NCBI GenBank assembly: GCA_964548275.1
Contig: CAZJQI010000016.1
Coordinates: 3,892-67,891 of the forward strand
Length of the DNA: 64,000 bases
From: an uncultured Gemmatimonadales bacterium
Lineage (GTDB): Bacteria > Gemmatimonadota > Glassbacteria > GWA2-58-10
Reading direction: 5' to 3'
In this document: piece by piece, positions 3 to 14,931 of the stretch
Position numbering within the stretch: the first letter of the stretch is position 1
Layout of the letters: the number at the start of each line of letters is the position of its first letter
Translations under genes and position numbers: made by a program
The notes under the pieces: model-generated
What the model was told of the DNA's origin: nothing
Databases searched by the model: none
The model's input: only the letters and a program-made list of their open reading frames with translations

Positions 3-470
3 AGCACTCTTCTGGAAATAAAAGAGCCGCTCGCTGATAACGTTCTTCTGGTCAAACGGGCGGCCGCTATGAATTTTACTCCTTCTCACGAGGCAGGCTC
101 CAATTATGTCCGGTTGACAGTTTCTACCTCCGAGCAAGACCCGGCATTTCCAAGAATCGAGGCCGGTTCGGGCACCATTGCAAACTTGGATTTCAATATA
201 AAAACCCCTGTGCAGAGCGGAAAGACCACAACCCTGCAGGTAAAATTGAGTGATGAAACCGAGCTGGCTTCACTGACAATGACCGCCCGCGAGTTTACCG
301 GCCCGTCTGCGGATGTCAGCGGGGACGGGAAAGAGGATATTTTCGACCTGCTCGATCTCCTCAATGTGCTCGGCGGCAATACCCCCAAAAGTGTATTCTC
401 GGATGTTAACGATGACGGTAAGACCGACATATTCGATCTTCTTGAGATATTGAGGCAGTTGAGCGGTTAA
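3..470 (+). CDS. 5'-truncated secreted protein: cohesin-like domain plus C-terminal dockerin
   Basis: The frame is open from the window edge (STLLEIKEPLADNVLLVKRAAAMNF...). It has a cohesin-like segment (..IEAGSGTIANLDFNIK..) and ends in a duplicated Ca-binding dockerin, ADVSGDGKEDIFDLLDLL...SDVNDDGKTDIFDLLEIL. Confidence 0.85.
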   Translation, partial: STLLEIKEPLADNVLLVKRAAAMNFTPSHEAGSNYVRLTVSTSEQDPAFPRIEAGSGTIANLDFNIKTPVQSGKTTTLQVKLSDETELASLTMTAREFTGPSADVSGDGKEDIFDLLDLLNVLGGNTPKSVFSDVNDDGKTDIFDLLEILRQLSG

Positions 471-516
471 TTATAAAAATCTGGGCTTTGAATTCACTTT
501 TGATTGATTGAATACT

Positions 517-549
517 GCAGGCCGGGCCGTTTGATCCAGCCGCTTTTTT
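517..549 (+). terminator. possible imperfect intrinsic terminator
   Basis: Imperfect GC-rich hairpin (GCAGGCCGGGCC..GATCCAGCCGC) followed by T6, 47 nt after the stop. Confidence 0.35.
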
Positions 550-737
550 AACTCTCGCCAGGAATTCTTCATCTCGTGGTGAGTGAAAGCTGGGAGCCGC
601 CTTCCAGTATTTTATTTCGAACATTTGCGTGCATAACCGCACATTTTCGTGCATAATCGAACATCGGTTTGGCCTCCTGAAAATCAATAGCGAGCACAAC
701 GGCTTGATTTTATGGCAGTTATACAGCCCACGAAATA

Positions 738-753
738 TGGCATTTAATATGCT
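738..753 (+). promoter_or_regulatory. sigma54 (-24/-12)-like promoter
   Basis: TGGCAT-TTAAT-ATGCT with exact GG-N10-GC spacing. Confidence 0.45.
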
Positions 754-867
754 CTGAATTTATTCCACTAATATTGTCAGGTTATTTTCACCATCCGAAA
801 AGTCATAAAAATTACAATAATATCACAAAAAGGTTTCAGATTGAATGGCCGGATTTTGTGCAGTCTT

Positions 868-882
868 TGGCACGTGATTTCC
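868..882 (+). promoter_or_regulatory. sigma54-like site with a perfect -24 and a variant -12
   Basis: TGGCACG-TGAT-TTCC versus consensus TGGCACG-N4-TTGC. Confidence 0.35.
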
Positions 883-912
883 GGCTTTTATTGAAGAATC
901 TTAATTTAATCA

Positions 913-1025
913 GGAAGTAGGTTCATTGCCCAAGCGGCTTGCCCTGCAACCGAGTTCGGCTTGAGTTGATCGAATCGGTTTATCAAGGTTGGAGACCCCC
1001 GGTTCAGCTCAGAGTGAATCCTTCC
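913..1025 (+). ncRNA. candidate structured RNA or leader element
   Basis: Closing stem GGAAG-ta-GGTTCATT (913-927) pairs with AGTGAATC-CTTCC (1013-1025). Inner hairpin AACCGA-G-TTCG (948-958) pairs with CGAA-TCGGTT (971-980). No family recognised. Confidence 0.3.
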
Positions 1026-1034
1026 CAGCGGTAA

Positions 1035-1053
1035 TGTTACTTGATGAGTAACA
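1035..1053. promoter_or_regulatory. palindromic operator or UAS candidate
   Basis: TGTTACT-N5-AGTAACA perfect 7-bp inverted repeat, 85-100 bp upstream of a sigma54-like site. Confidence 0.4.
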
Positions 1054-1137
1054 AAAGTAGAGACTTTCAGCAAACGGTGCATTTCGTAACTGATTGAAAT
1101 TAAAAGTCTTACCAGATAATACACCAGAGCGAAATTA

Positions 1138-1153
1138 TGGCACAAAAATTGAT
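1138..1153 (+). promoter_or_regulatory. sigma54-like promoter for the 1191 gene
   Basis: TGGCAC-AAAAA-TTGAT (one mismatch at -12), 38 nt before the ATG. Confidence 0.45.
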
Positions 1154-1190
1154 CACAAAATATTGGTTTTTACTAATTTAAGGGGGTGGT

Positions 1191-4100
1191 ATGTCTTCTT
1201 GGAAATCTGTCCGTACTTTATTCCTCTCTACATTCTTTACTCTCGCACTGATCTCCACCGCCCGGGCTTTAGAGCAGGACCATACCTGGTTCTTGAGCGG
1301 TACCCTCAATATTGGGGTTGACAACGAAATATTTATCGCTGTCGCCAACGACACCGCTTTCTCCGCAGCCGTAGTTGAGGTGCACTATGACACAACGCTT
1401 CTTGAGATTGGAACCGCTAGTCCGTCTCTTCTTAGCGAAGGTACCCATTTTGTACGTGTCGGTGAGCGGATGGATAGCATTGCCGTTATGGGCTCCAAGC
1501 CGGCAGGAACCGAAGGAGTGGCTCGCTTTACCCTTTATTCCACCGCTCAAACGGACCCTTATTATCACATAGTGGCCGGTACGGGTGATATTATCAAGCT
1601 GATTATCAAGGTCAAACCCGGAGTAGAATCCGGCGCCACAACGCTCGAACTCACCAAAACTAATTCCGGGGTATCGCTCACTACCCTTCGACTGGATATA
1701 ACGGCTCCAGAGGGTAATGTAGCTCCGAGTTGGAGTGTGTCAGCAGTCACCCTGAATTTAACCGAGGGCTCGCTTTTCACCCATGTTTTCGATGCTCCGG
1801 TTGATCGCGACCCGGGCGATCAATATGAGCTTTCTGCCCCCAATCTTCCCGGAGATGCGCAGTTCGATCCACTTTCCCGTACTTTCACCTGGACACCGGG
1901 CTTTGAGGATGCCGGAACCTACGAGTTCGTTATCACAGCCACGGACCTCGAGGGTACAAAGGGCTACCTGACCGTAACCCTCATTGTCGAAAACGTCAAC
2001 CAGCCTCCTGTGCTGACTGTCGCCCAGGAATCATACGAATTGAACCAGGGCGAGCCTCTGAGCTTCAGCATCAAGGCCGAAGATCCGGACGGACAGCGGG
2101 TTACTGTAACCGCTGCCGGTCTTCCCGCCGGAGCCACTTTCGTCTATCCTGTGTTCAACTGGCTCTCCGCAAAGGCGGGCCAGCATACGGTTACTTTCAC
2201 CGCCGAGGACCCGGATGGTCTAACCGACTCCAAATCTGTCGCGATCACGGTTACAGCGGTTAACCGGGCGCCTGACTTCGCAGCCGTTAATGATACGACG
2301 ATTGAAACCGGCACAGCGTTGGTACTCACCCTGAGCGCCACAGATCCGGATGGAGATCAGCCGCTTACTTACTCTGTTGTGCTTGCCAGTGAAACGGATA
2401 ATATCCTCACCCGCGGGGCGACTTTGAGCGGCAACGTGTTCAGCTGGACACCCGCCGCCACGGATATCGGTCCGAATATCGTTCTTTTCAAGGTTGGAGA
2501 TCCCGGGGGTTTGAGCGATGAGCTCTCGGTGAAGATCACTGTCACTGTCACCGGGCGCAATGTAACCGCCCCGGTGGCCTTCGCCGATTTCGGTGAGATA
2601 GTGATCGATGAGGGAGCCGAATACAGCCTCCAGTTGCCGCTTCTCGATCCAAGCCTGGAGAACCTGACATACTGGGCGCTTGGCTTACCTGAAGGCTCAA
2701 GTCTGGATTCTGAGACCGGTCTTTTCGCCTGGACTCCCACTCTACTGCAGTCAGGAACCTACACTGTTACTTTCGGAGTCAGTGACGGCAGCTTCCAGGA
2801 TGAGGCGGAAGTGGTGATCACAGTCGCGGAGACGGACGTGCTTCCGGATCTTCATTCTATCGACGGTCTGCCAATCGGCAATCTGATAGTGAACGAAGGC
2901 GAGCTTTTATCTGTTGTGCTCGAAGCCGAGGATGCAAGCGGCGAACAGGTTACTTTTAGCGCCGCCGGACTTCCCGCAGGCGCTCAGCTTTTCACTCTGG
3001 GCCTTTTGACTTACGAGCCTGGCTACGATGCGGCCGGCGATTACACGGTGACTTTTACTGTGACCGACGCCTCCGGCAATATTGACGAAGAGACGATTAC
3101 TCTGACAGTGGTGGATGTCAACCGCGAGCCTGTGCTGGCTGCCCTGGATAATCGGGCTGTGCAGGAAAACCAGAGGCTTAGTTTCACTGTTACCGCGACT
3201 GACCCGGACGGTGATGATTTCACTCTCGGCTCGGGAGACCTTCCCACCGGCGCCTCTTTCAACCCGGCAACCGGCGTTTTCGAGTGGACACCAGGGCAGC
3301 AACAGAGCGGAAACTACGAGATCCTTTTCACTGCCGATGACGGCCTGGCAGGCGGTGTTGACAGCCTGGTGGTTATTGTCTCTGTCGGAAACGTGAACCG
3401 GCCTCCTAAGATCGACCCGGTGGGCAACCAGGTGGTTGCCGAGGGACAGAGCCTTTCTTTCCAGGTCACTGCCTCGGACCCGGACCTCGACGATGCACTC
3501 ACAATCTCGGCCACCGGCCTGCCGGTCACACCGCAGGTCTCTCAGAGCGGGACTAACCCGGCCTATGCCACGATCACCTTGACTCCCGGCTATCTGCATC
3601 AAGGTACATATAATGTGGTGGTGACCGCCACGGATAACGATACCCAGCCTTTGAGTTCTTATGCGAAATTCACCCTCGAGGTGATCGATGTAGATGTCGC
3701 CCCTGCGTTCACCGGTGTGCTTGCCGGAACCGGGCCTTACGAGGTGACAGTCAAGGAGAATGAACCTCTCCAGATCACTGTGACTGCAGTAGACCCGGGA
3801 GGCGACAGACTCAGCTTCTCTGCGACAGGGTTGCCGCAAAACGCGCGCCTGGATCTTTCCGGCACAGCGGCGGATGCAAATCTGATTTTTACTCCCAGCT
3901 TCACCCAGTCAGGTCTGCACCTATTCGACATTCTTGTAACTGACGGCAGCAAGGTGGTTACCAAGAGGGTCAGCGTTACAGTGGCGGATGTCAATCGGCC
4001 CCCGCGGGTGCCTCCGATTGAGGATCAGTCGGTAATTGAAGACAACATTATTACCTTTGCGGTTGAAGCCACCGATCCCGACGGCGACAGCTTCGAGTTG

Positions 4101-5396
4101 TTCACTGCCGGCCGTGTGCCGTTTCTGACCGAGGGTGTGCCGCCGCCGGCCTGGATCCGCGACGGCAACGTCTTTGTTTTTGACACGGACCTGGTACCGG
4201 AAGAAGAGCAGATCAAGTCCGCAGTTTTCCTTTTCTGGGCCGTAGATGCACGCGACTCCGTGAGCGACACGGTACAGGTCGAGATCGCGGTGATTCGTGC
4301 CGATTCGCAGCAGGTGACCGATTTATCCAGCGGACTTGTCCAGTTGGCAGCCACGACAACGCTGACCACTCCCGGAATGGGGTTGAGCATCAACCTTGAC
4401 AATAACAGCGGTAATACAGTCTCCGGGCCTTTAGATTATTTCGAGAAATCAGGATTTATAAATCCCCTGTCAGGGTCCACTATCCTGGCAGGCGCGGGCG
4501 AAAAACCGGTAAAGAGTAAAGGAGTCTATAACTTTACCTATCTGGCCGGGGAACTCACCAGCCAGTTCTACGGTATCCGCCGCGGCTGGGGTGTGGACCT
4601 CACCGCGTTCGCTGCCGCCACAGGTGCGGATTCACTCCTGCCTGGCCTGGGCGCAACTGTTACTATCAGCTATTTCCAGGAGGACCTCCCCACCGAAATA
4701 CCCAATTTCACCGAAGAAAGACTGAAAGTTTTTGGATATGATGGGTTGGCAGGTACCTGGGTCATGCTGGACAGCGCCTCGGTTGACACGGCGACAAACG
4801 TGGCCACTTTCAAACTGACAAATCCAAACTTTATCGATTACACTGTAGGCGCGGTGCTGGACGTGGTCGCTCCGCTGATCACCGACCTCGAGGTCAAGGC
4901 CGGCAATTTCACGGTCAGCTCCACCGGCGTGGATACTCTTTACAACCTGGAAGGCGCCTACGAATTCCGCGTCAATATCACCGATGATGAAATTGTCAAT
5001 CCCACTGACGCCAAGATCTTTTACGCGGTCGGCGCCGGGAGTTTCACCGAAGAGCCGCTTATCCGCTCCGGGCCGAACCTCTTTACTGCAGCTATCGAGG
5101 AGGGAACTCTGGTCAGCGGAACGGTTATCCGCTACTATGTGCTGGCAATGGATGAAATGAACAGCGTAACCTCCCCCCAGGGAGCCCCGGAGAGCTACTA
5201 CGAACTGGTGTTGCTGGAATACACCGGCCAGCCCGGAGATCTTGACGGCAACACCAAGGTGGATATTTTCGACCTGCTCGAACTGCTTAAAGTTCTGGGC
5301 GGGAGTGTGCAGCCAGGTGTTTTCTCGGATGTTGACCAAAACCAAAAGACCGACATATTCGATCTTCTGGAGCTTTTAAAAATTCTCGCAGGTTAA
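1191..5396 (+). CDS. large secreted adhesin/scaffold-like protein: signal peptide, cohesin-like domain, about 9 cadherin-like/He_PIG Ig repeats, further beta domains, C-terminal dockerin
   Basis: Signal peptide ending in ARA. Repeats begin N(V/Q/R)xP and carry DPDGD and LPxGAxF..F.WTP motifs. The protein ends GDLDGNTKVDIFDLLELLK...SDVDQNQKTDIFDLLELLKILAG. Confidence 0.9.
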   Translation: MSSWKSVRTLFLSTFFTLALISTARALEQDHTWFLSGTLNIGVDNEIFIAVANDTAFSAAVVEVHYDTTLLEIGTASPSLLSEGTHFVRVGERMDSIAVMGSKPAGTEGVARFTLYSTAQTDPYYHIVAGTGDIIKLIIKVKPGVESGATTLELTKTNSGVSLTTLRLDITAPEGNVAPSWSVSAVTLNLTEGSLFTHVFDAPVDRDPGDQYELSAPNLPGDAQFDPLSRTFTWTPGFEDAGTYEFVITATDLEGTKGYLTVTLIVENVNQPPVLTVAQESYELNQGEPLSFSIKAEDPDGQRVTVTAAGLPAGATFVYPVFNWLSAKAGQHTVTFTAEDPDGLTDSKSVAITVTAVNRAPDFAAVNDTTIETGTALVLTLSATDPDGDQPLTYSVVLASETDNILTRGATLSGNVFSWTPAATDIGPNIVLFKVGDPGGLSDELSVKITVTVTGRNVTAPVAFADFGEIVIDEGAEYSLQLPLLDPSLENLTYWALGLPEGSSLDSETGLFAWTPTLLQSGTYTVTFGVSDGSFQDEAEVVITVAETDVLPDLHSIDGLPIGNLIVNEGELLSVVLEAEDASGEQVTFSAAGLPAGAQLFTLGLLTYEPGYDAAGDYTVTFTVTDASGNIDEETITLTVVDVNREPVLAALDNRAVQENQRLSFTVTATDPDGDDFTLGSGDLPTGASFNPATGVFEWTPGQQQSGNYEILFTADDGLAGGVDSLVVIVSVGNVNRPPKIDPVGNQVVAEGQSLSFQVTASDPDLDDALTISATGLPVTPQVSQSGTNPAYATITLTPGYLHQGTYNVVVTATDNDTQPLSSYAKFTLEVIDVDVAPAFTGVLAGTGPYEVTVKENEPLQITVTAVDPGGDRLSFSATGLPQNARLDLSGTAADANLIFTPSFTQSGLHLFDILVTDGSKVVTKRVSVTVADVNRPPRVPPIEDQSVIEDNIITFAVEATDPDGDSFELFTAGRVPFLTEGVPPPAWIRDGNVFVFDTDLVPEEEQIKSAVFLFWAVDARDSVSDTVQVEIAVIRADSQQVTDLSSGLVQLAATTTLTTPGMGLSINLDNNSGNTVSGPLDYFEKSGFINPLSGSTILAGAGEKPVKSKGVYNFTYLAGELTSQFYGIRRGWGVDLTAFAAATGADSLLPGLGATVTISYFQEDLPTEIPNFTEERLKVFGYDGLAGTWVMLDSASVDTATNVATFKLTNPNFIDYTVGAVLDVVAPLITDLEVKAGNFTVSSTGVDTLYNLEGAYEFRVNITDDEIVNPTDAKIFYAVGAGSFTEEPLIRSGPNLFTAAIEEGTLVSGTVIRYYVLAMDEMNSVTSPQGAPESYYELVLLEYTGQPGDLDGNTKVDIFDLLELLKVLGGSVQPGVFSDVDQNQKTDIFDLLELLKILAG

Positions 5397-5519: not shown

Positions 5520-5548
5520 TTGACAAAAAATTGGCGGAACTGTATAAT
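5520..5548 (+). promoter_or_regulatory. perfect-consensus sigma70 promoter
   Basis: TTGACA (5520-5525), 17 nt, TATAAT (5543-5548). The -35 lies within a 14-bp tandem duplication TTCTTGACAGAAAA/TTCTTGACAAAAAA (5503-5530). Confidence 0.85.
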
Positions 5549-5836
5549 TGGTCTAATTTGGGGTTTTCAAGGTAATCGTAAATTTTTCAACAGTCCGCTA
5601 AGCCATTGCCATATCTACACTTAGATGCATTTTCGAGCTATAACGAAAATCAAAAGGAGGGGTGTGCATTTCTGACTATTTTCTTGTTTTCCGGATTGTG
5701 GTAAGACTTTTGTAACAGACTTGGTAACAAATGCTTAATTCATTTTAGTGGGGGAATGTCTATGAAGAAAAGCCGACTGCCTTTGCCATACGGCATAACA
5801 GAGTTATCAAGAAACATCAAAAGGAGGACATCACTT

Positions 5837-8800
5837 ATGAAGTCTCGTCTTTTGTCCAGTGCAACAGCATTAGTTCTGTTGCTTGGTTTTGTAAGCACCA
5901 ATCTCTTTGGTCAAATAACCAATGCGGCCTCGGTTGGATTCTTGGTTAAAAGTTTTTCCAGGACGGGTGTTGCCACCACGGAAGGCTCCCAGACTGCTAG
6001 TGCCGGTCTGGATACGGTTGGCCGCGGGATGGAGGTTTTCGCCCGTTGGGAAACGCCGAGTCAGTTTTTGACCTCTGTTGATTATACGATAACTTTCCCT
6101 AAGGGAACGGTGCTGTTTGCGAATGCTGAGGACAGCGTCTATATCAATTACAAGGACAATACCTCGGAAGTCCAGATCAAAGTCGATCCTGCGAACGTTG
6201 CAGTTGTCGCCAATGACACGGCGGGTTATTTGTCTGGCAAAACTCCTTCGATCAAGGTTACCGATTATAACACCTTCTCCGGCGACAAAGTTGTTACCGT
6301 GAAGATGCTTAAAGGTATATACATCGGTAAATCGCTGGGCGATGTCAATTCCGAGGGCACCGCGCCGAATAAGAGGATGAAGTTCTCGCTGGAGCATTCA
6401 GCCAGCGCCGGCACGGTGATCAGCGACGTCACCAACTTCTACGCTGTGAACGACCTGGTAGCCGGAGTGCAGGTCAACACGGATGTCACCGGCTACATTG
6501 ATAATGCCACTAACTGGTCGAACATCGACTCCCTGGCCTTTGTTGACCGTTTCGGCAACTACGTGCCCGATTTCATGTCCGGAGCGTCTCAGGAAGACAC
6601 ACTCACGATCGGCGTCCCTGAAGGTGCCGGCGCGTTTGCCGACAGTGCAGAGGCCGACAGTGCCCTCCTCCGAACCGCAGGTACTCTGTTGCCGCATACA
6701 AACGGATATATGGCGTACACCGGTGACCCGGACAGCACGCTGGAGCTTACGCTTTCCAGCGGCGGGGGTTTTGGAACAGGCGCTAACGTTATTTACCACC
6801 AGAGAACTGCAAGCAAGTCAGTGGTTATCTATCTCGGTGCGGTAACATTGAACAGTGATGGTGCTCTCGGCCTGACCTTTGATGCGCCCACCGGCGCGAC
6901 CGAGACCAAGTTTACATTTACGGTCGTTGGGCCGAGGGTTAACTCAGGTACAGTCCTGAACGTTGATGCAACGGCTGTGACCGAGGTTACTAGGGACATC
7001 CTGCCCGTTGAAGAGGAAAAGAAGATCGGAACTCTCGTTCTTGCTACCGCGGCCACAGGCACTAACTACAACGGTGAGGCTTTGAGCGGTGGCTTCACTC
7101 TCACCCTGAAGAACATATTCGGTGAGAGTTTCGACGGTGGTGCTGTCGGTACTATTTCCGATTCCGTGAGTCTTACTTTGAAGTATCGAAAAGGTACTTA
7201 CGACGTAGATGAGGAGGAGTGGTCGTATGCGATCGACCCAACGCTGACCGGGTTGCTGACTTCCGGCGGCCTTGTTACCAGCGTGTACACCAGGCCGGCT
7301 ACCGAGCTTACAGGGACAGGTATCAGCGATGCTATGAATGTGGTTGGCCTTACCCTTACAGCCGGCGTTTGCACCGTGGCTGCCCCGGTATATCTCGGCA
7401 CGACCTCGCATCCCATTGGCGACTCGATTTACGTTGTCGCCGCGGCCTTTAATAACCCAGATGTTCGCGACAGCGTGCTCATTTCGGTTGAGCCGAGCGT
7501 GCCGGTTGCCTTCGATCTGGATACCCTGAAAGTCAATCTGGCCATAGCCAATGCCGAGAACAATATCATAAAAGGCGAGCCGATTGCGATCAATCTGCCG
7601 ATGTTCGCTCTTGATACCGCATATAACCGGGTTTCTAATTTGAGCCTGGTTACAGAAGCCGGTTATCTGGATGCTCTCAGTGCATATCCTGCAGTTGACG
7701 GGATCAACTTCCTGATGGACCTGCGCGATCCTGTCGGTTACAGGAGTACGACGGAACAGGATTCGATCCTTTTTGCCACGGTTGGTTCTGCCCGTGAGGA
7801 CAGCTCGTATATTTATGACCTTACAGTGGCAAGAGATGACAGCAGCAAGATCAACCTCGGCGGCGTGGGGGATGATTCCCTGGGTATGAGCCTGTTATAC
7901 GCAGCAGGTATCAACTTCAAGATAAGCATTGTCTGGGATCCCGGTGCGGTTCCTGGCGGCGCCCTAACTTTTGCAGAGAGAAGAATTGATCTGGGCCTGT
8001 TCAACATCGCGCCGGTTGCTACCACCGACAGCGTGGAGAGTATTACCCAGGTATCTGATCCGGATACGGTGGGTGCGACGCACGATCTTATACTTTCCTT
8101 CGTGATACCTATGGATCCCGCGAACAGCATCGGTCCGAACCTGGATGAGAAGTTGTTCTACATCGACTTCCCCGATCTGCCGGAAGTCGATGTGATAGCC
8201 TGGGATACTATCAAGGTCTCCACGGACAATGTCAACTATTACGCGGCTCTCAGCGTGAGCCAGGCTGATGACTCGCTCTGGATCGCCACGCCGATCGAGT
8301 TGAACTCTATCCTTGCGGACTTGACCGTCTGGGTTAAATTCCTGGATTTCGTCAACCCGTCCGTTGCGGATACGATAGGTTACACTATTCAGATGAAAAC
8401 CGAGGCCTGCCCGGTACTGGCCACGAACCTCGATGCTTTGGTTGTATTGCCCGCACCCACCGGGCCGACACCAGGCGCACCTACTGAGTTTACTGTCGTA
8501 ACTCTGCCGGATTCGCTCACCCCGGATACACTAACCGCTCAGGATATAGCTATTAATGCGGTTGACGCCGACTCGATTAAAAAAGTGTACATTAATATCT
8601 ATGAGAGTACACTTACGCTTGACGAGACAACCCATTTGTTCGTCGAGTCCGATCCGGTCGTCACAGTGGATTCGCTCGTTTACACGACTTATCCGGAAAC
8701 CGTGGAGGTGTCCAAGAGCATACCGGCCAAAGATCTGGCAACGAAGATTGGGATCGATCTCACTGTGATCGATGCTACTGATGATACTGTGACTTCGGAT

Positions 8801-9733
8801 AAGAAGAGCTATCTAATCGCTCCGTTGCGCGGTAAACGGAAACTGAGCACAGATGCGGTAAACGTGGCCGACCTGATGCGTTGCGTTTACCTGGTGGCCG
8901 GAGTGGTCGAAACACCCAAGGTCGTAGACTGGTTCGGTCTCGATCTGGATCAGAGCGGTGCTTTCGATGCGCTTGACCTTCAAGCCGTGCTTGCGATCTG
9001 GAGAGGAACCGGAACGTTACTGGCCTCCGCTTCCGGGGAACTGGCCAGCGAAGCCAAAGTCGAGCTTTCTTACGAGGCAGTCGACAAGGCCAACGCGAAC
9101 CTCATGGTCAGCCTCGAAAACAACGGTATCTTGAATATGGGTGTATTCCGGGTCAAGTACGACACAGAGAAATACGTGTTAGGCGATGCCAGTGCAACCG
9201 GACGTCTTGAAGACCTTACTGTGGTCTCGCATAACAACGAGGCTGAAGGTGAGTACAGTATAGTGGTGGTCAACGTTAACGGCCGCCCGATAGTCTCCGG
9301 TACTGGTGTGATTCTGACCATTCCTGTCTCGGCGGTTGGGGAGAAGTTTGACGGCATAGGAGAAATCTCGCTGCTGAGTGCCGGTTTCGAGTCGAGCGTC
9401 ACGACGGAGTTGAGCCGCGAGGCTCTGGCCCTGAAGGTAGCGCTGCCGAAAGCCTTTGCCTTGAGCCAGAACTTCCCTAACCCGTTCAACCCCTCAACGA
9501 CAATTGCCTTTGATATACCTGAAGGCAAGGAAGTCAGTGTCCGGCTGAACGTTTACAACATGCGCGGACAGCTCGTACGCACACTGGTCAACGAGCTCAA
9601 GAGCGAAGGCTCTTACCAGATCCAGTGGGACGGCACGGACAATTACGGCCGCAGAGTTTCTTCCGGAGTCTACTTCTACCGGATTACAACCGGTGAGTTC
9701 AGTCAGACTCGAAAGATGGTGATCCTCAAATAA
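5837..9733 (+). CDS. large secreted surface (S-layer-like) protein with divergent dockerin, cohesin-like domain and T9SS-type-A/FlgD-Ig CTD
   Basis: AAGGAGG RBS before ATG 5837, followed by a signal peptide and an acidic Thr/Val/Asp-rich beta body. Then VNVADLMRCV..DLDQSGAFDALDL, a cohesin-like domain (FRVKYDTEKY..GTGVILTI) and the CTD LPKAFALSQNFPNPFNPSTTI...SGVYFYRI...RKMVILK. Confidence 0.9.
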   Translation: MKSRLLSSATALVLLLGFVSTNLFGQITNAASVGFLVKSFSRTGVATTEGSQTASAGLDTVGRGMEVFARWETPSQFLTSVDYTITFPKGTVLFANAEDSVYINYKDNTSEVQIKVDPANVAVVANDTAGYLSGKTPSIKVTDYNTFSGDKVVTVKMLKGIYIGKSLGDVNSEGTAPNKRMKFSLEHSASAGTVISDVTNFYAVNDLVAGVQVNTDVTGYIDNATNWSNIDSLAFVDRFGNYVPDFMSGASQEDTLTIGVPEGAGAFADSAEADSALLRTAGTLLPHTNGYMAYTGDPDSTLELTLSSGGGFGTGANVIYHQRTASKSVVIYLGAVTLNSDGALGLTFDAPTGATETKFTFTVVGPRVNSGTVLNVDATAVTEVTRDILPVEEEKKIGTLVLATAATGTNYNGEALSGGFTLTLKNIFGESFDGGAVGTISDSVSLTLKYRKGTYDVDEEEWSYAIDPTLTGLLTSGGLVTSVYTRPATELTGTGISDAMNVVGLTLTAGVCTVAAPVYLGTTSHPIGDSIYVVAAAFNNPDVRDSVLISVEPSVPVAFDLDTLKVNLAIANAENNIIKGEPIAINLPMFALDTAYNRVSNLSLVTEAGYLDALSAYPAVDGINFLMDLRDPVGYRSTTEQDSILFATVGSAREDSSYIYDLTVARDDSSKINLGGVGDDSLGMSLLYAAGINFKISIVWDPGAVPGGALTFAERRIDLGLFNIAPVATTDSVESITQVSDPDTVGATHDLILSFVIPMDPANSIGPNLDEKLFYIDFPDLPEVDVIAWDTIKVSTDNVNYYAALSVSQADDSLWIATPIELNSILADLTVWVKFLDFVNPSVADTIGYTIQMKTEACPVLATNLDALVVLPAPTGPTPGAPTEFTVVTLPDSLTPDTLTAQDIAINAVDADSIKKVYINIYESTLTLDETTHLFVESDPVVTVDSLVYTTYPETVEVSKSIPAKDLATKIGIDLTVIDATDDTVTSDKKSYLIAPLRGKRKLSTDAVNVADLMRCVYLVAGVVETPKVVDWFGLDLDQSGAFDALDLQAVLAIWRGTGTLLASASGELASEAKVELSYEAVDKANANLMVSLENNGILNMGVFRVKYDTEKYVLGDASATGRLEDLTVVSHNNEAEGEYSIVVVNVNGRPIVSGTGVILTIPVSAVGEKFDGIGEISLLSAGFESSVTTELSREALALKVALPKAFALSQNFPNPFNPSTTIAFDIPEGKEVSVRLNVYNMRGQLVRTLVNELKSEGSYQIQWDGTDNYGRRVSSGVYFYRITTGEFSQTRKMVILK

Positions 9734-9746
9734 GAGGATAACGGCT

Positions 9747-9786: not shown

Positions 9787-9928
9787 AAACAAAGAAACAT
9801 CATTGTTGTGTATTGTGTCCGTATTGTCGAGAATCTCCAACCAATCGGGATTACTTAATCATGGGATAGAAGCAGATGATAAAATCAACTCGTTATATCT
9901 GCTCGTCACGAGACGGGGAGGTTAAGAT

Positions 9929-12900
9929 ATGAAACTTAAGAGGCTTTTAAGCCTGACAGGATTTTTAACTGCAATACTGATGTTTACTGGTGGGAGTAGC
10001 CTGCATGCGGCGGATCTTATACGCATAGGGAGTGCCCAGGCTTTCGCTGGGGGTAATGATACGGTTAGCGTATATGTTACTACGGATGAGGCATATAACG
10101 CTGTTGAGATACTCCTTAGCTTTGATCCGGCTAAGTTCAGCTACGAAGAGGGAAGCCTTGTCTATGATCAGGAGGCTTGGAATCCTGCCTGGGGTGCTCC
10201 CGATGTACTAGCCGACAGCGTCAACGGGACGGTTAGAGTATCATTCGTTTCTCCAACAGTGCTGGATGCTGCGGTGCCCCAGTCTGCTGTCGCGCTTAAG
10301 CTTTTCTCGGTGGTCCTGAATGTTGCCGAGGGAGTTGCTACAGGCACGGAAACTATTACCCCGAGCGGAATGTTTGCCAGCCGGGACGAGGAATACAACC
10401 CGGTAGAGCACGTGGTTACAAATCTCACTGCCGGCTCTTTCCTCGTCCAGACCGCTTTTACGATTTCTGTAGAGGAGAACGTTCAGGCGAGTCCAGGGTA
10501 TGCCACGCCGGTAAATATTTATCTTACCAATGCTAAAGACGCTGTCGGTGTTCAGTTCACTTTGACTTTCGCCAGCGCTCAGCTCGAGTACGCCGGGACG
10601 GTTGAATTGAACCAGGAGGCCTGGCAGGACGGGACACCTCAGCCTGTGGAGGTGACACCTGCGGCGGGCGAGGTGCAGGTAGTCATTTACGCCTCTGCTA
10701 CTGCAAAGATTCCCGTATCGAACGATCCGCGCTGGATTGCCAAGGTCTACCTGAAAACCGCCGATGGCGCGGCTGAAACGGCAGTCAACCCGCTGACATT
10801 GTCTGAAGGCATGGTGGTTACTGTCGATGAATTTGAACCTATAGAAAATTCTGCCACGCTCGTTGACGGCAATTTTGAGATTCTGGCAAAACAAAGCCTG
10901 AAAGTGAGCACTGATGCGGCAGCGCCACAGGGTGGCTCCGATACGGTTAAAGTTTATTTGAAAACCGCCGAGACTGCTGTTGGGGTTGAAGCCGAACTGA
11001 AGTTCGACGCGGACCAGTTTACCGCCGACGAGAGCAGTGTCGTCTTTAACAAGGCGATATTCTCTGGCCTGGAAGCCAATGTAACTGTCGATGTGCTGGT
11101 CACTGATTCGACACTCAAGGTAACGGCCTTACCGGCGGCCCAGGACAGCATTGCGGGGAGTGATGTTGAGAAAGATCTCTTTTCCGTGGTGCTCCAGGTT
11201 AAGGAGGACGCTACACCCGCTTCCTATGACCTGGATATCAGTGGGATGCTGACGACCAGGGACGAGAATTACGATACTGAGGAATGGCCTATCACTTCTG
11301 TTACCAAAGGCGCGTTCCTTGTCCGCAGTCCTTTCGAGCTTCAGGTGCAGAGCATGACCGTCCTTCCTCTGACTAAACAAACGGTTAACATTCTGTTAAC
11401 TAATAGAGATATAGTTATCGGAGGGCAGGTCGTAGTCAAATTCAACTCCACTGAGCTAACCTACGAAGAGGGTTCGCTGGTAGTTAACAGCGATATCTGG
11501 AGCGCAGGGGCACCGACATCTGAAGTGGAGGCAGGTGCAGACAGCGTGGCGGTACGCCTTTACGATCTCACTGGACAGACAACGATTGCGGCCGGTGGAT
11601 CAGGCCAGGTACTGCTGTCCCTCGATTTAACTCTCAGCAGCGTCCTGGCGGTCGGTGACACGGCATGGATCAATGTGGAAGGTCTGGCTGCTGTCCCGGA
11701 CCCGGACGACCCATCCGATCCCCTGGAGCAGATCGCAACCGGTATTTCCGGATATATTGCCGTGAGCGAGGAAGTTGGGCCGACGGAGCCGGAGGACGTG
11801 ACATACCTCAAGGTCATGCCGGTTGTTGCCGCTGCCGGAGGAGCAGCGAATTCAACGAAAGTCATGCTCTACTCAGTGGAAAAGGACGTGGCTGGAGTCG
11901 GATTCAAGTTCAAGTTCGATCAAACGAAAATCCAGTTGACAAGTGTCGCGGAAGGCGCTGACGTCCCAGTGCCGTATGGGGTGGTCTACCCGATTGACTT
12001 GGATTCAGCCAATACGAACGGAGAGTTTATTCTGTCAGCAATCGACACTAGTTTAGCAAATCCCATCGCCGCCGGCACAGAGGCTGAAATTGTGGTTGTC
12101 GGTCTGCAGGTGCTGGAAGGTGTCGCAACTGGCCACATACCGCTAACTCTGGAAGAGGCTTCGCTGTCAGATCCGGAGGGACTGGATATACCCGTCACGG
12201 TGACTAACGGTTACGTCAGTGTGGTTATACCCACTGGAGCCGATCTGAACGGTGATGGCGTAATCGACGCCAGAGATTTGTGGTACTACCTGAACAACCC
12301 CATGACGGTGCTGATCGACGATCTTGCCGCATGTATCGCAACGCTGCTGGCACAACCGTTGCCCTCGACCATGCTTGCTTCGGCCCAGGATGCGGTCTAT
12401 ACAGCGAGCGCGGCGGATGGTGCAGCCTTGATCAACCTGAACACTGATTTCGAAATCATCCTTGCTCGCTTTACATTCAGCTATGACAATTCCTACGGCG
12501 TGGCGGATGTACAGTTGAGCCAGGCATTGGCGGGCAAAGTCTTTATCAAGAAGATGTTTGTGGAAGGTAAACTGGTTGTTGATATAATCAGTCTTACCGG
12601 CCTGGTTCCCGCTGAGCTGGGAAGCGAAATGTTCAGTGTTGCTTTCCGTGACGCGAGTCATCAAGAGGTTGGCCTTACTCTGGAAAAAGTCGAGGTGGCT
12701 GACCGCAGCGGAAAGGTTTACATTGAGGCTGCCAAGGTAAACGTGGCGAAAGCTTTGCCAAAGGTTTTCTCCCTGTCCCAGAACAGCCCCAACCCGTTTA
12801 ACCCCTCGACAACGATCTCTTACGAGATTCCAGAATCGAGCGGTGCGGCTAAAGTTGTGGTGGCTGTTTACAACATTCGTGGACAGAAAGTTATTACCCT

Positions 12901-13048
12901 GGTAGATGAGCTCAAGGAAGCCGGACAGTACTCTGTTAACTGGAATGGCCGGAATGAAAACGGCCGGAGAGTATCTTCCGGTGTTTACTTCTACAGAATG
13001 AGTGCCGGCGATTTTACGGCAGTTAGAAAAATGGTAATTGTGAAGTAG
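9929..13048 (+). CDS. scaffoldin-like protein: 5 tandem cohesin-like domains, dockerin-like motif, degenerate cohesin, T9SS-type-A/FlgD-Ig CTD
   Basis: Signal peptide, then about 145-aa repeats with pattern (G..dTV.V.L......GVqF.L.FD...L.Y). Then ADLNGDGVIDARDL and the CTD LPKVFSLSQNSPNPFNPSTTI...RKMVIVK. Confidence 0.85.
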   Translation: MKLKRLLSLTGFLTAILMFTGGSSLHAADLIRIGSAQAFAGGNDTVSVYVTTDEAYNAVEILLSFDPAKFSYEEGSLVYDQEAWNPAWGAPDVLADSVNGTVRVSFVSPTVLDAAVPQSAVALKLFSVVLNVAEGVATGTETITPSGMFASRDEEYNPVEHVVTNLTAGSFLVQTAFTISVEENVQASPGYATPVNIYLTNAKDAVGVQFTLTFASAQLEYAGTVELNQEAWQDGTPQPVEVTPAAGEVQVVIYASATAKIPVSNDPRWIAKVYLKTADGAAETAVNPLTLSEGMVVTVDEFEPIENSATLVDGNFEILAKQSLKVSTDAAAPQGGSDTVKVYLKTAETAVGVEAELKFDADQFTADESSVVFNKAIFSGLEANVTVDVLVTDSTLKVTALPAAQDSIAGSDVEKDLFSVVLQVKEDATPASYDLDISGMLTTRDENYDTEEWPITSVTKGAFLVRSPFELQVQSMTVLPLTKQTVNILLTNRDIVIGGQVVVKFNSTELTYEEGSLVVNSDIWSAGAPTSEVEAGADSVAVRLYDLTGQTTIAAGGSGQVLLSLDLTLSSVLAVGDTAWINVEGLAAVPDPDDPSDPLEQIATGISGYIAVSEEVGPTEPEDVTYLKVMPVVAAAGGAANSTKVMLYSVEKDVAGVGFKFKFDQTKIQLTSVAEGADVPVPYGVVYPIDLDSANTNGEFILSAIDTSLANPIAAGTEAEIVVVGLQVLEGVATGHIPLTLEEASLSDPEGLDIPVTVTNGYVSVVIPTGADLNGDGVIDARDLWYYLNNPMTVLIDDLAACIATLLAQPLPSTMLASAQDAVYTASAADGAALINLNTDFEIILARFTFSYDNSYGVADVQLSQALAGKVFIKKMFVEGKLVVDIISLTGLVPAELGSEMFSVAFRDASHQEVGLTLEKVEVADRSGKVYIEAAKVNVAKALPKVFSLSQNSPNPFNPSTTISYEIPESSGAAKVVVAVYNIRGQKVITLVDELKEAGQYSVNWNGRNENGRRVSSGVYFYRMSAGDFTAVRKMVIVK

Positions 13049-13058
13049 AAATCAGGCA

Positions 13059-13089
13059 CCGGGCTCCCGCTCCTCGAGCGGGAGTCCGG
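13059..13089 (+). other. intergenic GC-rich stem-loop without a U-tract (RNA-stabilising or processing element?)
   Basis: CCGGGCTCCCGCTC-ctc-GAGCGGGAGTCCGG, a 14-bp stem with one G-U pair, lying between co-oriented genes. Confidence 0.7.
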
Positions 13090-13134
13090 CACTGAACCTG
13101 ATTATAGATAAACCAGCTCATCAGGGGGAACGAT

Positions 13135-14931
13135 ATGAAAATATTTAAGATACTATTCCTTGGAATAGTACTTGTGCTTTTCAACTTGGCGTATCTGGCG
13201 GCGCAGACCGAGTCTGATACCGTATCCATCAGTCCGGGGATTGGTCAGCCCGGTGGTACACTGGATATAACTGTTGATGTAGCGATTAACTCGGAAAACG
13301 TCGGAGGATTGGTCATCACCTTTGCTGTACCGTCCGAGTTGGATACCTCAGCGGGTGCATGGTATGCATTCTCTCCTGGGTATGGTGAAGCGCTTTCTCA
13401 ACATCTTGAAACATTGGTCAGTAAGACTGATTCATTGATAGCCGTTGCCCTGTTTGGGCTTACCAGCTTCGATGATCTGATAGTATTAGGGAAGATACCC
13501 TCCAAGTCAGGTGAATTGATAACTTTTACACTCAATGTTCCTGAGGACATGGAGGAGGGTTCTTACGAGATTACGGCTGATCCGGAAGCAAACCAGATCA
13601 CGTCAAGTGTTATAGGAGAAACTCCATGGAGTTTCACGCTAGAACTTGGGCCAGTCGTAATCTCCATCATCCCGGACGACAATACCCTGCGACTGGATGC
13701 CTCCCTCACTGCCATGAGCGGCGGAACGCTCTCGCTGCCGGTCTATATTGCGAATAAGGATACGGTGGATTCCGGGAGCTTTAAGCTTACCTATCCCTCC
13801 AGCACTCTGACTTTCTCCAGCGTTACAGCGGGAACCCGGGCTGGCGGGATGACCTTCAGCAGCGGTGTTGCCCTTGCAGGTACCGCATTAAGCGCTGTTG
13901 GTGATAAAGTAGCCACTATCTCCTTCACCGGCGGTGAGATACCCACAGGCGGACTTGGCGATATGTGCACGGTTGCGTTCAGTGTTGCCTCTGTCGGCGC
14001 AGGTGTCACTGCTTCTGTGGTTCTGAGTGACGTAGTGCTGAATGGCGGCGCTCTGACAGTCGCCACTTCGCCACAGGCCACAGCAGACTTAAGTTTCGCC
14101 TTTGGCGATACGTTGGCTATCGCTGTCCAGACCGGTACTGCCGATAAAGGTGTCCCGTGGGAGGGAACCGGTATTGCTCCCATTATCGATGGGCAGCTTC
14201 ACCTGCCGATCCGGTTGAAAAACAGCGTGCCTGTGCAGAGCCTCATTTTCTATGTTACGGAAGGTCCGGTGGATAAAACCGGCGTTCTCTCGGCCGACAC
14301 TCTGGTGCCGGTCACGACTCTCACCCCGACATCCGGTTGGGTGGCTACTGCTGTAGATTCCGGCTCCTTTGTTAAGGTGGTTGCTTATGCTGCTACACCT
14401 GCTGACGGCATACCAGCCGGAGACAATGTTGTTCTTCACGTGGTCTATGATATCACTCTGGCTGAGGGAGAGATACCCGGGGTCGATGATCTAGGGATCG
14501 ATATCAGTTTTGCGCTGGCGGGCGTTCAGGTGGTTGACAATACCGGCAGCCTTGTCGGCATTGAAAAAGTGGGTGCTACAGCTACGATTGACTGGCGCGT
14601 GCCTACCTCGGGTGAGGGCGTTGGCCCTGGCGCCGCGCTGCCCAAGGCTTTTGCACTGGCCCAGAACTATCCGAACCCGTTCAACCCGTCCACTACGATC
14701 AGTTACCAGATCCCCGAGGACGCAGGTAACGTATCTTTTACTCTCAACGTGTACGATATCCGCGGACGCCTGGTAAAGACACTGGCCAAAGGTATGAAAG
14801 GTTCAGGTTTCTACTCGGCATTCTGGGACGGTTCTGATTCTAACGGCCGTCAGGTAAGCAGCGGAGTTTACTTCTATCGCTTCACTTCCTCCAAGTACAG
14901 CGCCACGAGGAAGATGATCCTGCTGAAGTAA
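13135..14931 (+). CDS. mini-scaffoldin-like protein: 3 cohesin-like domains plus T9SS-type-A/FlgD-Ig CTD
   Basis: Signal peptide, then three cohesin-like units (GQPGGTLDITVDV.., SGGTLSLPVYIAN.., DGQLHLPIRLKN..). CTD LPKAFALAQNYPNPFNPSTTI...RKMILLK. Confidence 0.85.
   Translation: MKIFKILFLGIVLVLFNLAYLAAQTESDTVSISPGIGQPGGTLDITVDVAINSENVGGLVITFAVPSELDTSAGAWYAFSPGYGEALSQHLETLVSKTDSLIAVALFGLTSFDDLIVLGKIPSKSGELITFTLNVPEDMEEGSYEITADPEANQITSSVIGETPWSFTLELGPVVISIIPDDNTLRLDASLTAMSGGTLSLPVYIANKDTVDSGSFKLTYPSSTLTFSSVTAGTRAGGMTFSSGVALAGTALSAVGDKVATISFTGGEIPTGGLGDMCTVAFSVASVGAGVTASVVLSDVVLNGGALTVATSPQATADLSFAFGDTLAIAVQTGTADKGVPWEGTGIAPIIDGQLHLPIRLKNSVPVQSLIFYVTEGPVDKTGVLSADTLVPVTTLTPTSGWVATAVDSGSFVKVVAYAATPADGIPAGDNVVLHVVYDITLAEGEIPGVDDLGIDISFALAGVQVVDNTGSLVGIEKVGATATIDWRVPTSGEGVGPGAALPKAFALAQNYPNPFNPSTTISYQIPEDAGNVSFTLNVYDIRGRLVKTLAKGMKGSGFYSAFWDGSDSNGRQVSSGVYFYRFTSSKYSATRKMILLK

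Follow-up and report, generated by a model that had tools for sequence, protein, structure and literature searches.

What would a bacterium do with a set of secreted proteins full of cohesin- and dockerin-like modules, none of which is a hydrolase? The question is raised by one end of a 64,000-nucleotide stretch of DNA (the window) from a sediment bacterium related to Glassbacteria, a diderm of the FCB group. The original prediction read the locus as a cell-surface lattice or adhesion complex. Module and domain searches support the modular surface system, one that combines cohesins and dockerins with T9SS sorting domains in a diderm FCB-group bacterium, but favor enzyme display over an enzyme-free lattice. 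Sequences and structural models together make it fairly probable that the locus encodes a hierarchical scaffold, anchored by the T9SS, that displays enzymes acting on proteins and glycans rather than on cellulose.

Genes of the locus and their conservation

As predicted, five consecutive, co-oriented open reading frames (ORFs; g0-g4, all on the + strand) encode secreted modular proteins (Table 1). The g0 gene is cut by the window edge and starts 649 nt upstream of it (C16:3243 in the contig). We set the start of g2 at the 5837 ATG; its longest ORF begins at 5756, and the homologue consensus starts MKSRLL. The promoter-like site between g1 and g2 may be a separate promoter of g2-g3-g4, in a consensus scan that returned 16 sites in total against 11.0 +/- 4.0 in shuffles. 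In RNA-Seq data, two libraries of one study gave only short contigs (90-97% likeness), which may be DNA carry-over.

The earlier 'candidate-phylum' framing does not hold in the sense of an orphan phylum: among named organisms, 'Latescibacteria bacterium DG_63' and MAGs of Candidatus Glassbacteria/Gemmatimonadales are the closest relatives. In related Glassbacteria/Gemmatimonadales MAGs the cassette is conserved, with the order g1-g2-g3-g4 kept in L040, L043 and L046, g2-g3-g4 in L042 and L045, and g3-g4 in L041, L044 and L047, which end at contig ends. Syntenic proteins share 40-64% identity, and the relatives too have cohesin-cohesin-dockerin ORFs of about 380 aa. In a sample of the phylum, 11 of the 12 other genomes from this bacterium's family have cohesins (2-14 matches each) versus 20 of 288 elsewhere, and all 12 have strong dockerins (3-20 matches) versus 11 of 288 (1-2 matches). 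This co-expansion is a single evolutionary event within one family and not an independent replication.

Table 1. Features of the locus in window coordinates, with the structural alignments of individual modules.
Feature	Position	Strand	Details
g0	3..470	+	in window: C-terminal 155 aa of 372-aa protein; signal peptide - cohesin - cohesin - class A dockerin
g0 class A dockerin	about 303-467
g1	1191..5396	+	1401 aa, adaptor or rod
g1 cohesin	1314-1658		aa 42-156, after signal peptide
g1 Ig-like He_PIG/Big_9 repeats (9)	1752-4292		aa 188-1034
g1 stretch without domain assignment			about 300 aa, between Ig-like repeats and dockerin
g1 class A dockerin	5229-5393		aa 1347-1401
Promoter-like site TTGACA-17-TATAAT	5520..5548	+	12/12 consensus match, between g1 and g2
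g2	5837..9733	+	1298 aa from ATG at 5837; signal peptide, then about 1000 aa lineage-restricted region without known domain
g2 single Ca-loop helical segment	about 8858-8998	+
g2 conserved module	about 9038-9451	+	135 aa, fold unverified
g2 T9SS type A CTD	9473-9724	+	44.9 bits
g3	9929..13048	+	1039 aa, predicted anchored scaffoldin; signal peptide
g3 cohesin 1	10010-10456	+	residues 25-175: Z 16.1, rmsd 2.3 A, 143/173 aligned
g3 cohesin 2	10457-10888	+	residues 174-321: Z 16.3, rmsd 2.2 A, 131/135 aligned
g3 cohesin 3	10889-11323	+
g3 cohesin 4	11327-11776	+	residues 468-617: Z 12.5, rmsd 3.4 A, 140/184 aligned
g3 cohesin 5	11795-12232	+	residues 623-768: Z 19.0, rmsd 1.8 A, 138/144 aligned
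g3 single Ca-loop helical segment	12236-12382	+
g3 sixth, divergent cohesin-like module	12425-12745	+
g3 T9SS type A CTD	12788-13039	+
g4	13135..14931	+	598 aa, predicted anchored scaffoldin; signal peptide
g4 cohesin 1	13210-13671	+	residues 26-179: Z 15.9, rmsd 2.2 A, 138/144 aligned
g4 cohesin 2	13672-14106	+	residues 180-322: Z 15.1, rmsd 2.3 A, 129/143 aligned
g4 third cohesin-like module	14107-14604	+	probable
g4 T9SS type A CTD	14668-14919	+

Cohesin and dockerin modules

The cohesin model PF00963 scored over its cut-off in g3 (83.4 bits, four stretches), g0 (41 bits) and g4 (27.9 bits) and reached 24.5 bits for g1 in the whole-genome scan, where seven of the eight matches sit in the g0-g4 locus. 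An HMM built from the locus gave clear matches in g3 (five), g0 (two), g1 (one) and g4 (one), and very weak ones in g4 (two), g3 (822-934) and g2 (1105-1193). The two g0 cohesins are related to each other (34% identity, E 1e-11), and the first shares 68.5% identity with that of g1. We aligned AlphaFold2 models of g3 (pLDDT 78.7) and g4 (pLDDT 78.1) to 48,161 PDB representatives. For each model the top 20 rows were solved cohesins, which modules 1, 2, 4 and 5 of g3 and modules 1 and 2 of g4 matched at Z 12.5-19.0 (rmsd 1.8-3.4 A). Module 3 of g3, which had no separate structural match, is related to module 1 (hhalign 99.7%). Sequence identity in the structural alignments was only 10-23% and phmmer searches with the locus cohesins found no PDB cohesin, indicating that they are very divergent from the solved ones.

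The five-cohesin scaffoldin proposed at 9929 is thus present in g3, together with a sixth module that resembles module 5 by profile (residues 800-942; 96.7%, E 3e-10). In the three-cohesin mini-scaffoldin proposed at 13135 (g4), two modules are secure and the third is a probable cohesin (hhalign 71%; a single alignment spanning two domains reached Z 13.6, though at rmsd 12.5 A). Counting Pfam, paralogy and AlphaFold2 evidence, the locus has 10 firm cohesins, 12 with the probable ones and 13 with a g2 candidate, one and a half of which fall upstream of the window; the g2 module is unsupported.

The dockerins of g0 and g1 have duplicated Ca-loops and score 24-26 bits in the genome scan (g1, 26.2 bits with Pfam) and 68 and 81 bits, respectively, on an HMM of the genome's own dockerins, whose seed included g1. 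With its cohesin, nine Ig-like repeats and dockerin, g1 (1191) has the rod architecture originally described. These two account for the real members of the four dockerin-like modules claimed; those of g2 (3.9 bits on the same HMM) and g3 (1.0 bits) are degenerate segments with a single Ca-loop plus helices. The g2 'cohesin' likewise found no support (hhalign at most 13%, BLASTP E no better than 0.26), and of the 'dockerin+cohesin+CTD' proposed for g2 (5837) only the CTD, which is over cut-off, was confirmed. A sequence search of 1.84 billion entries gave 22 representatives for g2, and domain, Atlas and PDB searches, the last two with no match, lend no support to the label 'S-layer-like'. Kept in the cassette, g2 would be co-anchored by the same CTD type as g3 and g4.

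Cargo, export and alternative readings

A domain search of the five locus proteins found no GH, CBM or SLH family at E <= 0.01. 'Hydrolase-free' thus describes the locus, but not the genome, in which a scan gave 42 dockerin-like ORFs, 29 of them over the Pfam cut-off. Domain scans of 38 that lie outside the locus gave five peptidases (S8, M14, M6), seven polysaccharide-lyase/GH-like proteins (two below the Pfam cut-off) and three FGE-sulfatase-domain proteins; the dockerin-tagged set includes heparinase-II/III-like, beta-helix, and adhesin-like Ig and FG-GAP proteins. Eighteen further ORFs share the dockerin class of g0 and g1, while about 20 of the 42 form a second or divergent class, many below the Pfam cut-off. 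Consistent with the claim that this is not a cellulolytic machine, neither the locus nor the 39 dockerin ORFs scanned had a CBM3, SLH or cellulase family listed. The dockerin-tagged peptidases, lyase/GH-like and FGE proteins therefore make enzyme display likelier than an enzyme-free lattice or a pure adhesin.

The T9SS-type sorting domains were confirmed by TIGR04183 and PF18962, over cut-off in g2, g3 and g4. The genome encodes PorU (552 bits) and SprA (473 bits), each over cut-off, with a PorV-like ORF adjoining PorU, and 24 CTD ORFs. Of the ring and motor, GldK gave only partial matches below cut-off, on FGE-domain paralogues, and GldM had no match in the genome, but its control likewise matched nowhere.

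From the modules, folds, sorting domains, census and synteny we infer binding, anchoring and substrates as follows. The type A CTDs would direct export of g3 (5-6 cohesins) and g4 (2-3 cohesins) via T9SS, and PorU sortase, by analogy with characterised T9SS cargo, would fix them on the outer-membrane surface. The adaptors g0 and g1 would plug into the anchored cohesins by their class A dockerins, thereby placing their own cohesins further out from the cell, and about 40 dockerin-tagged proteins encoded elsewhere in the genome would be held on the scaffold as cargo. The outcome would be a surface machine that both attaches to and degrades the proteins and glycans of sediment detritus rather than cellulose. 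Overall, the sequences most likely point to a cellulosome-like holding of dockerin-tagged proteases and glycan-degrading enzymes, without cellulases.

The shared dockerin class also bears on the strongest rival, in which the g0-g4 modules bind each other only, for example as head-to-tail g0/g1 chains on g3 and g4, to form a coat or adhesive fibrils unrelated to the other dockerin enzymes. The lack of a catalytic domain within the locus, the nine-Ig rod of g1, typical of adhesins, and adhesin-like dockerin ORFs (the FG-GAP L001, the 2431-aa Ig-rich L002) suit this idea, and self-polymerisation is conceivable since g0 and g1 each have a cohesin and a dockerin. However, the g0/g1 class is also found on S8, M14 and M6 peptidases, FGE-sulfatase-domain and GH-like proteins; a cohesin binding g0 or g1 therefore probably binds enzyme dockerins too. 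As the 42 dockerin ORFs also far outnumber the locus proteins, we regard a self-contained lattice as unlikely. Slightly less likely still is that the modules do not pair, the EF-hand repeats and jelly rolls each having a role of their own, such as stabilisation by Ca2+ or the binding of glycans or minerals. Separate action is suspected for many non-cellulosomal cohesin and dockerin homologues, and the divergence of the cohesins and the many sub-threshold dockerins would agree with it. Against this stand the expansion of both modules in the same family, their joint occurrence in g0, g1 and L003, the conserved cassette, and fold matches that include cohesins solved as dockerin complexes.

Enzyme display itself meets a difficulty in the route of dockerin proteins to the cell surface. 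Thirty-five of the 42 dockerin ORFs, including g0 and g1, show no CTD, and the only two secretins found belong to pilus gene sets, one of type IV (PilMNO-PilQ) and one MSHA-like (MshL/M/N-like). The dockerin might instead be a secretion tag in trans, by which CTD-less proteins dock on the scaffoldins, every one of which has a CTD, in the periplasm and cross via T9SS. We know of no precedent for such trans-export, and a branched multi-enzyme complex is perhaps too bulky for the translocon. Moreover, the genome is 93.8% complete and the search used GspD/secretin models only, so that the search may have missed a T2SS or some different route; a GspE/MshE-like ATPase is encoded within the window. 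We consider export in trans as improbable as modules that do not pair.

Comparison with known systems

Among the top fold matches of the g3 and g4 models are 6kgc, 5nrk, 3kcp, 4uyp, 3ul4, 4dh2, 1ohz, 5lxv and 2zf9, solved cohesins of clostridial and ruminococcal cellulosomes. Such cellulosomes include those of C. thermocellum (CipA with OlpA/OlpC/SdbA), A. cellulolyticus (ScaA/ScaB/ScaC) and R. flavefaciens (ScaA-E). The modeled jelly roll (Z up to 19.0), the duplicated F-hand dockerins and the tiers, from anchored scaffoldins through adaptor scaffoldins with dockerins to enzymes tagged by a dockerin, are alike. Unlike cellulosomes, which are anchored by SLH or sortase on a Gram-positive wall, the present system would use T9SS CTDs on a diderm outer membrane, and here there is no CBM3 and no cellulase or hemicellulase family is listed among the dockerin ORFs scanned.

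Cohesin and dockerin modules outside cellulosomes were reportedly described by Peer and colleagues in 2009 (cited in PMC8542988). The top fold matches also include 2xdh from Archaeoglobus fulgidus and 2vo8, 2w1n and 2o4e, GH-borne cohesins of Clostridium perfringens (Z 13.8-16.7), which have the same fold although their hosts are not cellulolytic. Most such modules occur singly, on an enzyme or a small protein, whereas here multi-cohesin scaffoldins accompany a large dockerin complement.

Among named homologues, the closest to g3 and g4 (89-90% identity) carry the label 'Latescibacteria bacterium DG_63'. This lineage may therefore already be covered in part by work on Latescibacteria, for which a passage in PMC7081726 cites 'cellulosome-affiliated enzymes' (Farag et al., 2017); in the literature searched, 'dockerin' co-occurred with 'Latescibacteria' or 'Glassbacteria' in no paper.

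The concept itself was already proposed, in silico only, for another phylum: Williams et al. (2021; PMC8542988) describe a putative cellulosome-like complex in Candidatus Stygibacter, a member of the Cloacimonadota. Signal-peptide enzymes there also carry dockerins, an S8 peptidase among them, and degradation of polypeptides and polysaccharides, not cellulose, was inferred. The cargo reported there includes GH18, GH57 and C25, versus M14, M6, heparinase-like and FGE-sulfatase-domain proteins here. Where Stygibacter is described with one giant 3,755 aa scaffoldin bearing CBM2/CBM3, the present system, with no CBM listed, has a conserved cassette that combines three CTD proteins (g2, g3 and g4) with two adaptors bearing dockerins, and its dockerins fall into two sequence classes.

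The locus and its five proteins

Five consecutive co-oriented ORFs occupy the start of the window, as originally predicted (see table), and their translations all begin with a signal-peptide-like hydrophobic N-terminus. They encode a cohesin-cohesin-dockerin protein (g0), a cohesin protein with nine Ig-like repeats and a dockerin (g1), a protein ending in a T9SS C-terminal sorting domain (CTD; g2) and two CTD-bearing cohesin scaffoldins (g3 and g4). The window spans positions 3892-67891 of contig C16, and its edge truncates g0, whose full protein on the contig is 372 aa long and lies downstream of efp, accB and accC. Two hairpins resembling terminators are found downstream of g0, and the g1-g2 spacer contains a perfect sigma-70 consensus, which suggests that g2-g3-g4 may form a transcription unit of their own.

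Coordinates of features in the window, in the rest of the genome and in related loci
Feature	Sequence	Position	Strand	Remark
Five co-oriented ORFs, g0-g4	window	3-14931	+	g0 truncated by window edge
Hairpins resembling terminators	window	589-608; 691-706		downstream of g0
Sigma-70 consensus	window	5520-5548	+	TTGACA, 17 nt, TATAAT; 12/12
g2, longest-ORF start	window	5756
g2, favoured ATG	window	5837
g2 N-terminal region	window	5837-8875		~1000 aa
GspE/MshE-like ATPase, GAF and MshEN domains	window	18941-21106	-	downstream of cassette
AAA_22 and zinc-ribbon ExeA/MshM-like protein	window	21572-24151		downstream of cassette
FGE-sulfatase and TPR protein	window	24799-26679		downstream of cassette
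TPR protein	window	26990-28162		downstream of cassette
Secretin region L048	contig C7	53511-58300		pilus-type gene set
Secretin region L049	contig C26	33841-38735		pilus-type gene set
g4 homologue	related locus L040	14329-16081		split over two frames or ORFs
g3 homologue	related locus L045	1590-5416		split over two frames or ORFs

We used two tests for cohesins, a PF00963 match above the gathering score and a nine-stranded beta jelly-roll superimposable on solved cohesins. PF00963 was matched above its gathering score by g3 (83.4 bits over four stretches), g0 (41 bits) and g4 (27.9 bits). Scanned in all six frames, the genome as a whole gave eight cohesin matches. Seven of them (24.5-35.3 bits, all above the cut-off) lie in the locus, the N-terminal module of g1 among them, and the last is on contig C4, in a 267-aa protein with a cohesin and a dockerin. 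With an HMM built from the locus, g3 shows five clear modules, g0 two, and g1 and g4 one each, and signals elsewhere are very weak. Module 4 of g3 (27 bits only on this HMM), modules 1 and 3 of g4, residues 800-942 of g3 and the g2 module do not individually pass PF00963. Comparison of homologue alignments with hhalign links g3 modules 1 to 5 to one another at 95-99.7%, and connects to g3 module 5 both g3 residues 800-942 (96.7%, E 3e-10) and g4 module 2 (96.3%); g4 modules 1 and 3 are weaker at 75% and 71%. By BLASTP the cohesins fall into three groups, namely both g0 modules with that of g1 (34-68% identical), g3 modules 1 to 4, and the remainder.

Since phmmer searches of g2, g3 and g4 against PDB sequences reached no cohesin chain (FlgD/PorU-like proteins matched the CTD only), the fold was tested directly on AlphaFold2 models of the full-length proteins g3 (pLDDT 78.7, built on 33 aligned rows) and g4 (pLDDT 78.1, 21 rows). 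Foldseek was uninformative on the multi-domain g3 model, returning multi-Ig proteins only (PrgB, axonemal proteins, alpha-2-macroglobulins), and we therefore used VIA-align against 48,161 PDB representative chains. Cohesins, cellulosomal and non-cellulosomal, occupy all top 20 rows for both models. Module 5 of g3 superimposes on 6kgc_A with Z 19.0 and an rmsd of 1.8 Å over 138 of 144 residues; modules 2, 1 and 4 of g3 align to solved cohesins with Z 16.3, 16.1 and 12.5, and modules 1 and 2 of g4 with Z 15.9 and 15.1. These six modules of g3 and g4 are thus modelled with the cohesin fold, the jelly-roll on which the original prediction depended. Our tally is ten firm cohesins, twelve with the probable sixth module of g3 and third of g4, and thirteen only if g2 is counted. 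The cohesin attributed to g2 is not supported: profile comparison gives at most 13% and BLASTP nothing better than E 0.26. We regard it as a conserved 135-aa module, fold unverified.

Dockerins were recognised by PF00404 above the gathering score (22.9) together with two tandem Ca-binding loop/helix segments. In the genome scan g1 scores 26.2 bits and g0 24.3 bits with neighbouring stretches, and hmmscan of whole g1, or of the C-terminal 155 aa of g0 encoded in the window, gives 19 bits each, below 22.9. Both dockerins contain two D-x-[DN]-x-[DN]-G...IFDLL repeats. Four dockerin-like modules had been proposed for the locus: those of g0 and g1 are real, and those of g2 and g3 are degenerate, with 3.9 and 1.0 bits respectively on the genome-own HMM and a single conserved Ca-loop with helices in each. 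In g1, predicted to be a rod, the cohesin is followed by nine Ig-like repeats (He_PIG, Big_9, cadherin-like; residues 188-1034), ~300 aa without an assigned domain and the dockerin.

For g2, the predicted ATG is favoured over the longest-ORF start because the homologue alignment begins MKSRLL. Its N-terminal region is lineage-restricted, rich in T/V/A/D/S/G and Cys-poor; a search of 1.84 billion representative proteins gave no more than 22 relatives. These 1000 residues gave no Pfam family, Atlas match or credible PDB profile match, leaving the label 'S-layer-like' unsupported; stomatin, the best PDB profile match outside the CTD (E 0.002, ~65 residues only), was disregarded.

Secretion genes and dockerin-bearing proteins in the genome

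The CTDs of g2, g3 and g4 exceed the cut-offs of both TIGR04183 (44.9, 44.8 and 37.2 bits; cut-off 23) and PF18962 (36.7, 30.8 and 31.7 bits; cut-off 27), identifying them as T9SS type A. No SLH family was found for the five locus proteins (E <= 0.01), the C-termini of g2, g3 and g4 being T9SS CTDs instead. The census of T9SS core genes suggested in the original proposal found PorU at 552 bits against a cut-off of 420 and SprA at 473 bits against one of 200; all nine PorV matches lie under the cut-off of 250, one of them adjoining PorU. The GldK model gave partial sub-cut-off matches only, 23 in number, on paralogues with an FGE-sulfatase (SUMF1-like) domain, which is strongly expanded genome-wide. 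The GldM model gave no match, and its control gave none anywhere either. The genome encodes 24 CTD-bearing ORFs, and most dockerin ORFs, g0 and g1 among them, are without a CTD.

The GspD model matched two secretins, both below cut-off and both in pilus-type gene sets: one, in a PilMNOQ set, comes after PilM, PilN and PilO, and behind the second (an MshL/M/N-like set) lie AAA_22/SPOR and TPR proteins. Neither of these two lies in a classical T2SS context. The genes downstream of the cassette in the window are listed in the table; three related loci (L041, L044, L046) likewise have, downstream of g4, a thymidylate kinase and an ExeA-like ORF whose N-terminus is the same.

Genome-wide we counted 42 dockerin-like ORFs, of which 29 were flagged above the cut-off. 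With the genome-own HMM about 20 of them group as class A, marked by D-x-N-x-D-G-x-V-N-I-F-D-L-L repeats; g0, g1 and most of the peptidases and FGE-domain proteins belong here. The other ~20 are more divergent, many with S/T-I-x-D-A/V instead. The two dockerin classes may correspond to different cohesin groups. A complex prediction for g3 cohesin 1 (residues 28-176) with the g1 dockerin scored 0.02 (mark 0.32), the partner's own fold being uncertain, and counts neither for nor against pairing.

Pfam was run on 39 of the 42 dockerin ORFs, namely g0 and 38 outside the locus; g1 and g3 were scanned separately and a 35-aa contig-end fragment was excluded. Five of the 38 are peptidases (two S8, one M14, two M6) and seven resemble polysaccharide-active proteins: two with a Heparinase II/III C-terminal domain (one below cut-off), a GHL15, a GH123-like, a PcRGLX/GH127-like, a Pel9A-like beta-helix and a weak GH39. 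Three combine N-terminal dockerins with an FGE-sulfatase domain (L005, L009, L013), three have Sortilin/BNR domains (L022, L027, L032), and an FG-GAP protein and a 2431-aa Ig-rich protein are adhesin-like; the remainder include several DUFs and seven ORFs without any other domain. No CBM or cellulase family was found for the five locus proteins (E <= 0.01) or the 38 other dockerin ORFs (E <= 0.001). Since dockerin-tagged enzymes are encoded elsewhere, the description 'hydrolase-free' is true of the locus and untrue of the system.

In six of the dockerin ORFs (L020, L023, L029, L031, L035 and L038, on contigs C44, C71, C57, C51 and C8) a dockerin-like module lies ~100-250 residues before a CTD and is joined to it by a helical linker. 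Such proteins would be both anchored and dockerin-bearing. We rejected a 'dockerin-module-CTD' tail common to g2/g3 and other CTD proteins, since the others have a full dockerin and helical linker before the CTD.

Conservation and environmental occurrence

The closest named homologues belong to 'Latescibacteria bacterium DG_63' (89-90% identity). We found eight related loci in Candidatus Glassbacteria and Gemmatimonadales MAGs: three of the eight keep the order g1-g2-g3-g4, two keep g2-g3-g4, and three, cut by contig ends, keep g3-g4. The g0 architecture recurs in relatives as ~380-aa ORFs with two cohesins and a dockerin. One g4 homologue and one g3 homologue are split (see table), which could reflect frameshift, assembly error or real decay.

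Within a phylum sample of 301 genomes, we set 12 others from the same family as the window against the 288 from elsewhere. Cohesins occur in 11 of the 12 (2-14 matches each) and in 20 of the 288; strong dockerin matches occur in all 12 (3-20 each) and in 11 of the 288 (1-2 each). Cohesins and dockerins have expanded together in this family, which counts as one event because it concerns a single lineage.

Several studies have metagenome runs with near-identical DNA, from marine sediment, sediment, subsurface and marsh. Four runs were aligned to the locus. Two of them, labelled metatranscriptomic (X6 and X8), are probably DNA. The other two, RNA-Seq runs from a single study (X19 and X20), yielded 9 and 8 short contigs with 90-99% likeness to parts of g2, g3 and g4 and none over g0 or g1; nothing follows from a part left uncovered. 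The small number and the divergence of these contigs keep them from serving as evidence of transcription, and they may represent DNA carry-over or relatives.

A candidate surface scaffold and its relation to known systems

Cohesin-dockerin assemblies are a textbook case of programmable extracellular protein assembly, and experimental work on them has, to our knowledge, been confined almost entirely to cellulose degraders that are Gram-positive. The most economical reading of the locus is a hierarchical surface scaffold, every binding step of which we infer. The scaffoldins g3 and g4 would be anchored at the surface through the T9SS, g0 and g1 would act as adaptors docking onto them, and the g1 cohesin would be held out at the end of the nine-Ig rod. 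The cargo would then be the proteins with dockerins that are encoded elsewhere in the genome, among them peptidases, enzymes active on glycans and proteins resembling adhesins.

An enzyme-free lattice, as originally proposed, agrees with the content of the five genes themselves; it is the less likely reading because the dockerins of g0 and g1 are of a class that enzymes also carry. The cassette also raises the question by which route dockerin proteins that lack a sorting domain get across the outer membrane. It is conceivable, and in our estimation rather improbable, that the dockerin is a trans-acting export tag. In the periplasm, CTD-less proteins would attach to the cohesin scaffoldins that have a CTD and would cross the outer membrane together with them, with g2 as a dedicated partner. 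If this were true, the cohesin-dockerin pair would serve as an adaptor for secretion in addition to its part in assembly.

Read as a hierarchical scaffold, the locus would be a compact and conserved cassette that places cohesin and dockerin modules on a diderm surface via the T9SS, comprising two anchored scaffoldins, two adaptors and the partner g2, with peptidases and glycan-active enzymes as apparent cargo. This suggests how uncultured Glassbacteria/Gemmatimonadota sediment bacteria may attack detrital protein and glycans. The divergent cohesins, ~13 in number, and the two sequence classes of dockerin also offer candidate orthogonal binding pairs for use as tools.

In the library searched, no paper has either 'Latescibacteria' or 'Glassbacteria' together with 'dockerin', and papers pairing Gemmatimonad with dockerin and cohesin contained, by title, nothing on this system. 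According to a citing passage (PMC7081726), Latescibacteria were reported by Farag et al., 2017 to have 'cellulosome-affiliated enzymes', and that paper or its supplements could already list these genes. We set aside Youssef et al., 2015 (PMC4454575) as a source on Latescibacteria cellulosomes, as the words cellulosome, cohesin, dockerin and scaffoldin are absent from its text.

A cellulosome sensu stricto has dockerin-borne cellulases or hemicellulases, a CBM3 scaffoldin and SLH or LPXTG anchoring, a description that the present system does not fit. The nearer parallel is Candidatus Stygibacter (Cloacimonadota), for which, in the passages of Williams et al., 2021 (PMC8542988) that bear on it, a cellulosome-like complex was inferred from a tandem-cohesin scaffoldin with a conserved CTD and from dockerin-tagged peptidases and GHs. 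Here, likewise, g3 and g4 have tandem cohesins and a CTD, and the genome encodes dockerin-bearing S8, M14 and M6 peptidases and lyase/GH-like proteins. As far as those passages describe it, the Stygibacter proposal is essentially the same concept, and for this reason we claim no new principle: the general idea is already published for Cloacimonadota, and the present locus adds to it a well-defined, conserved and testable system.
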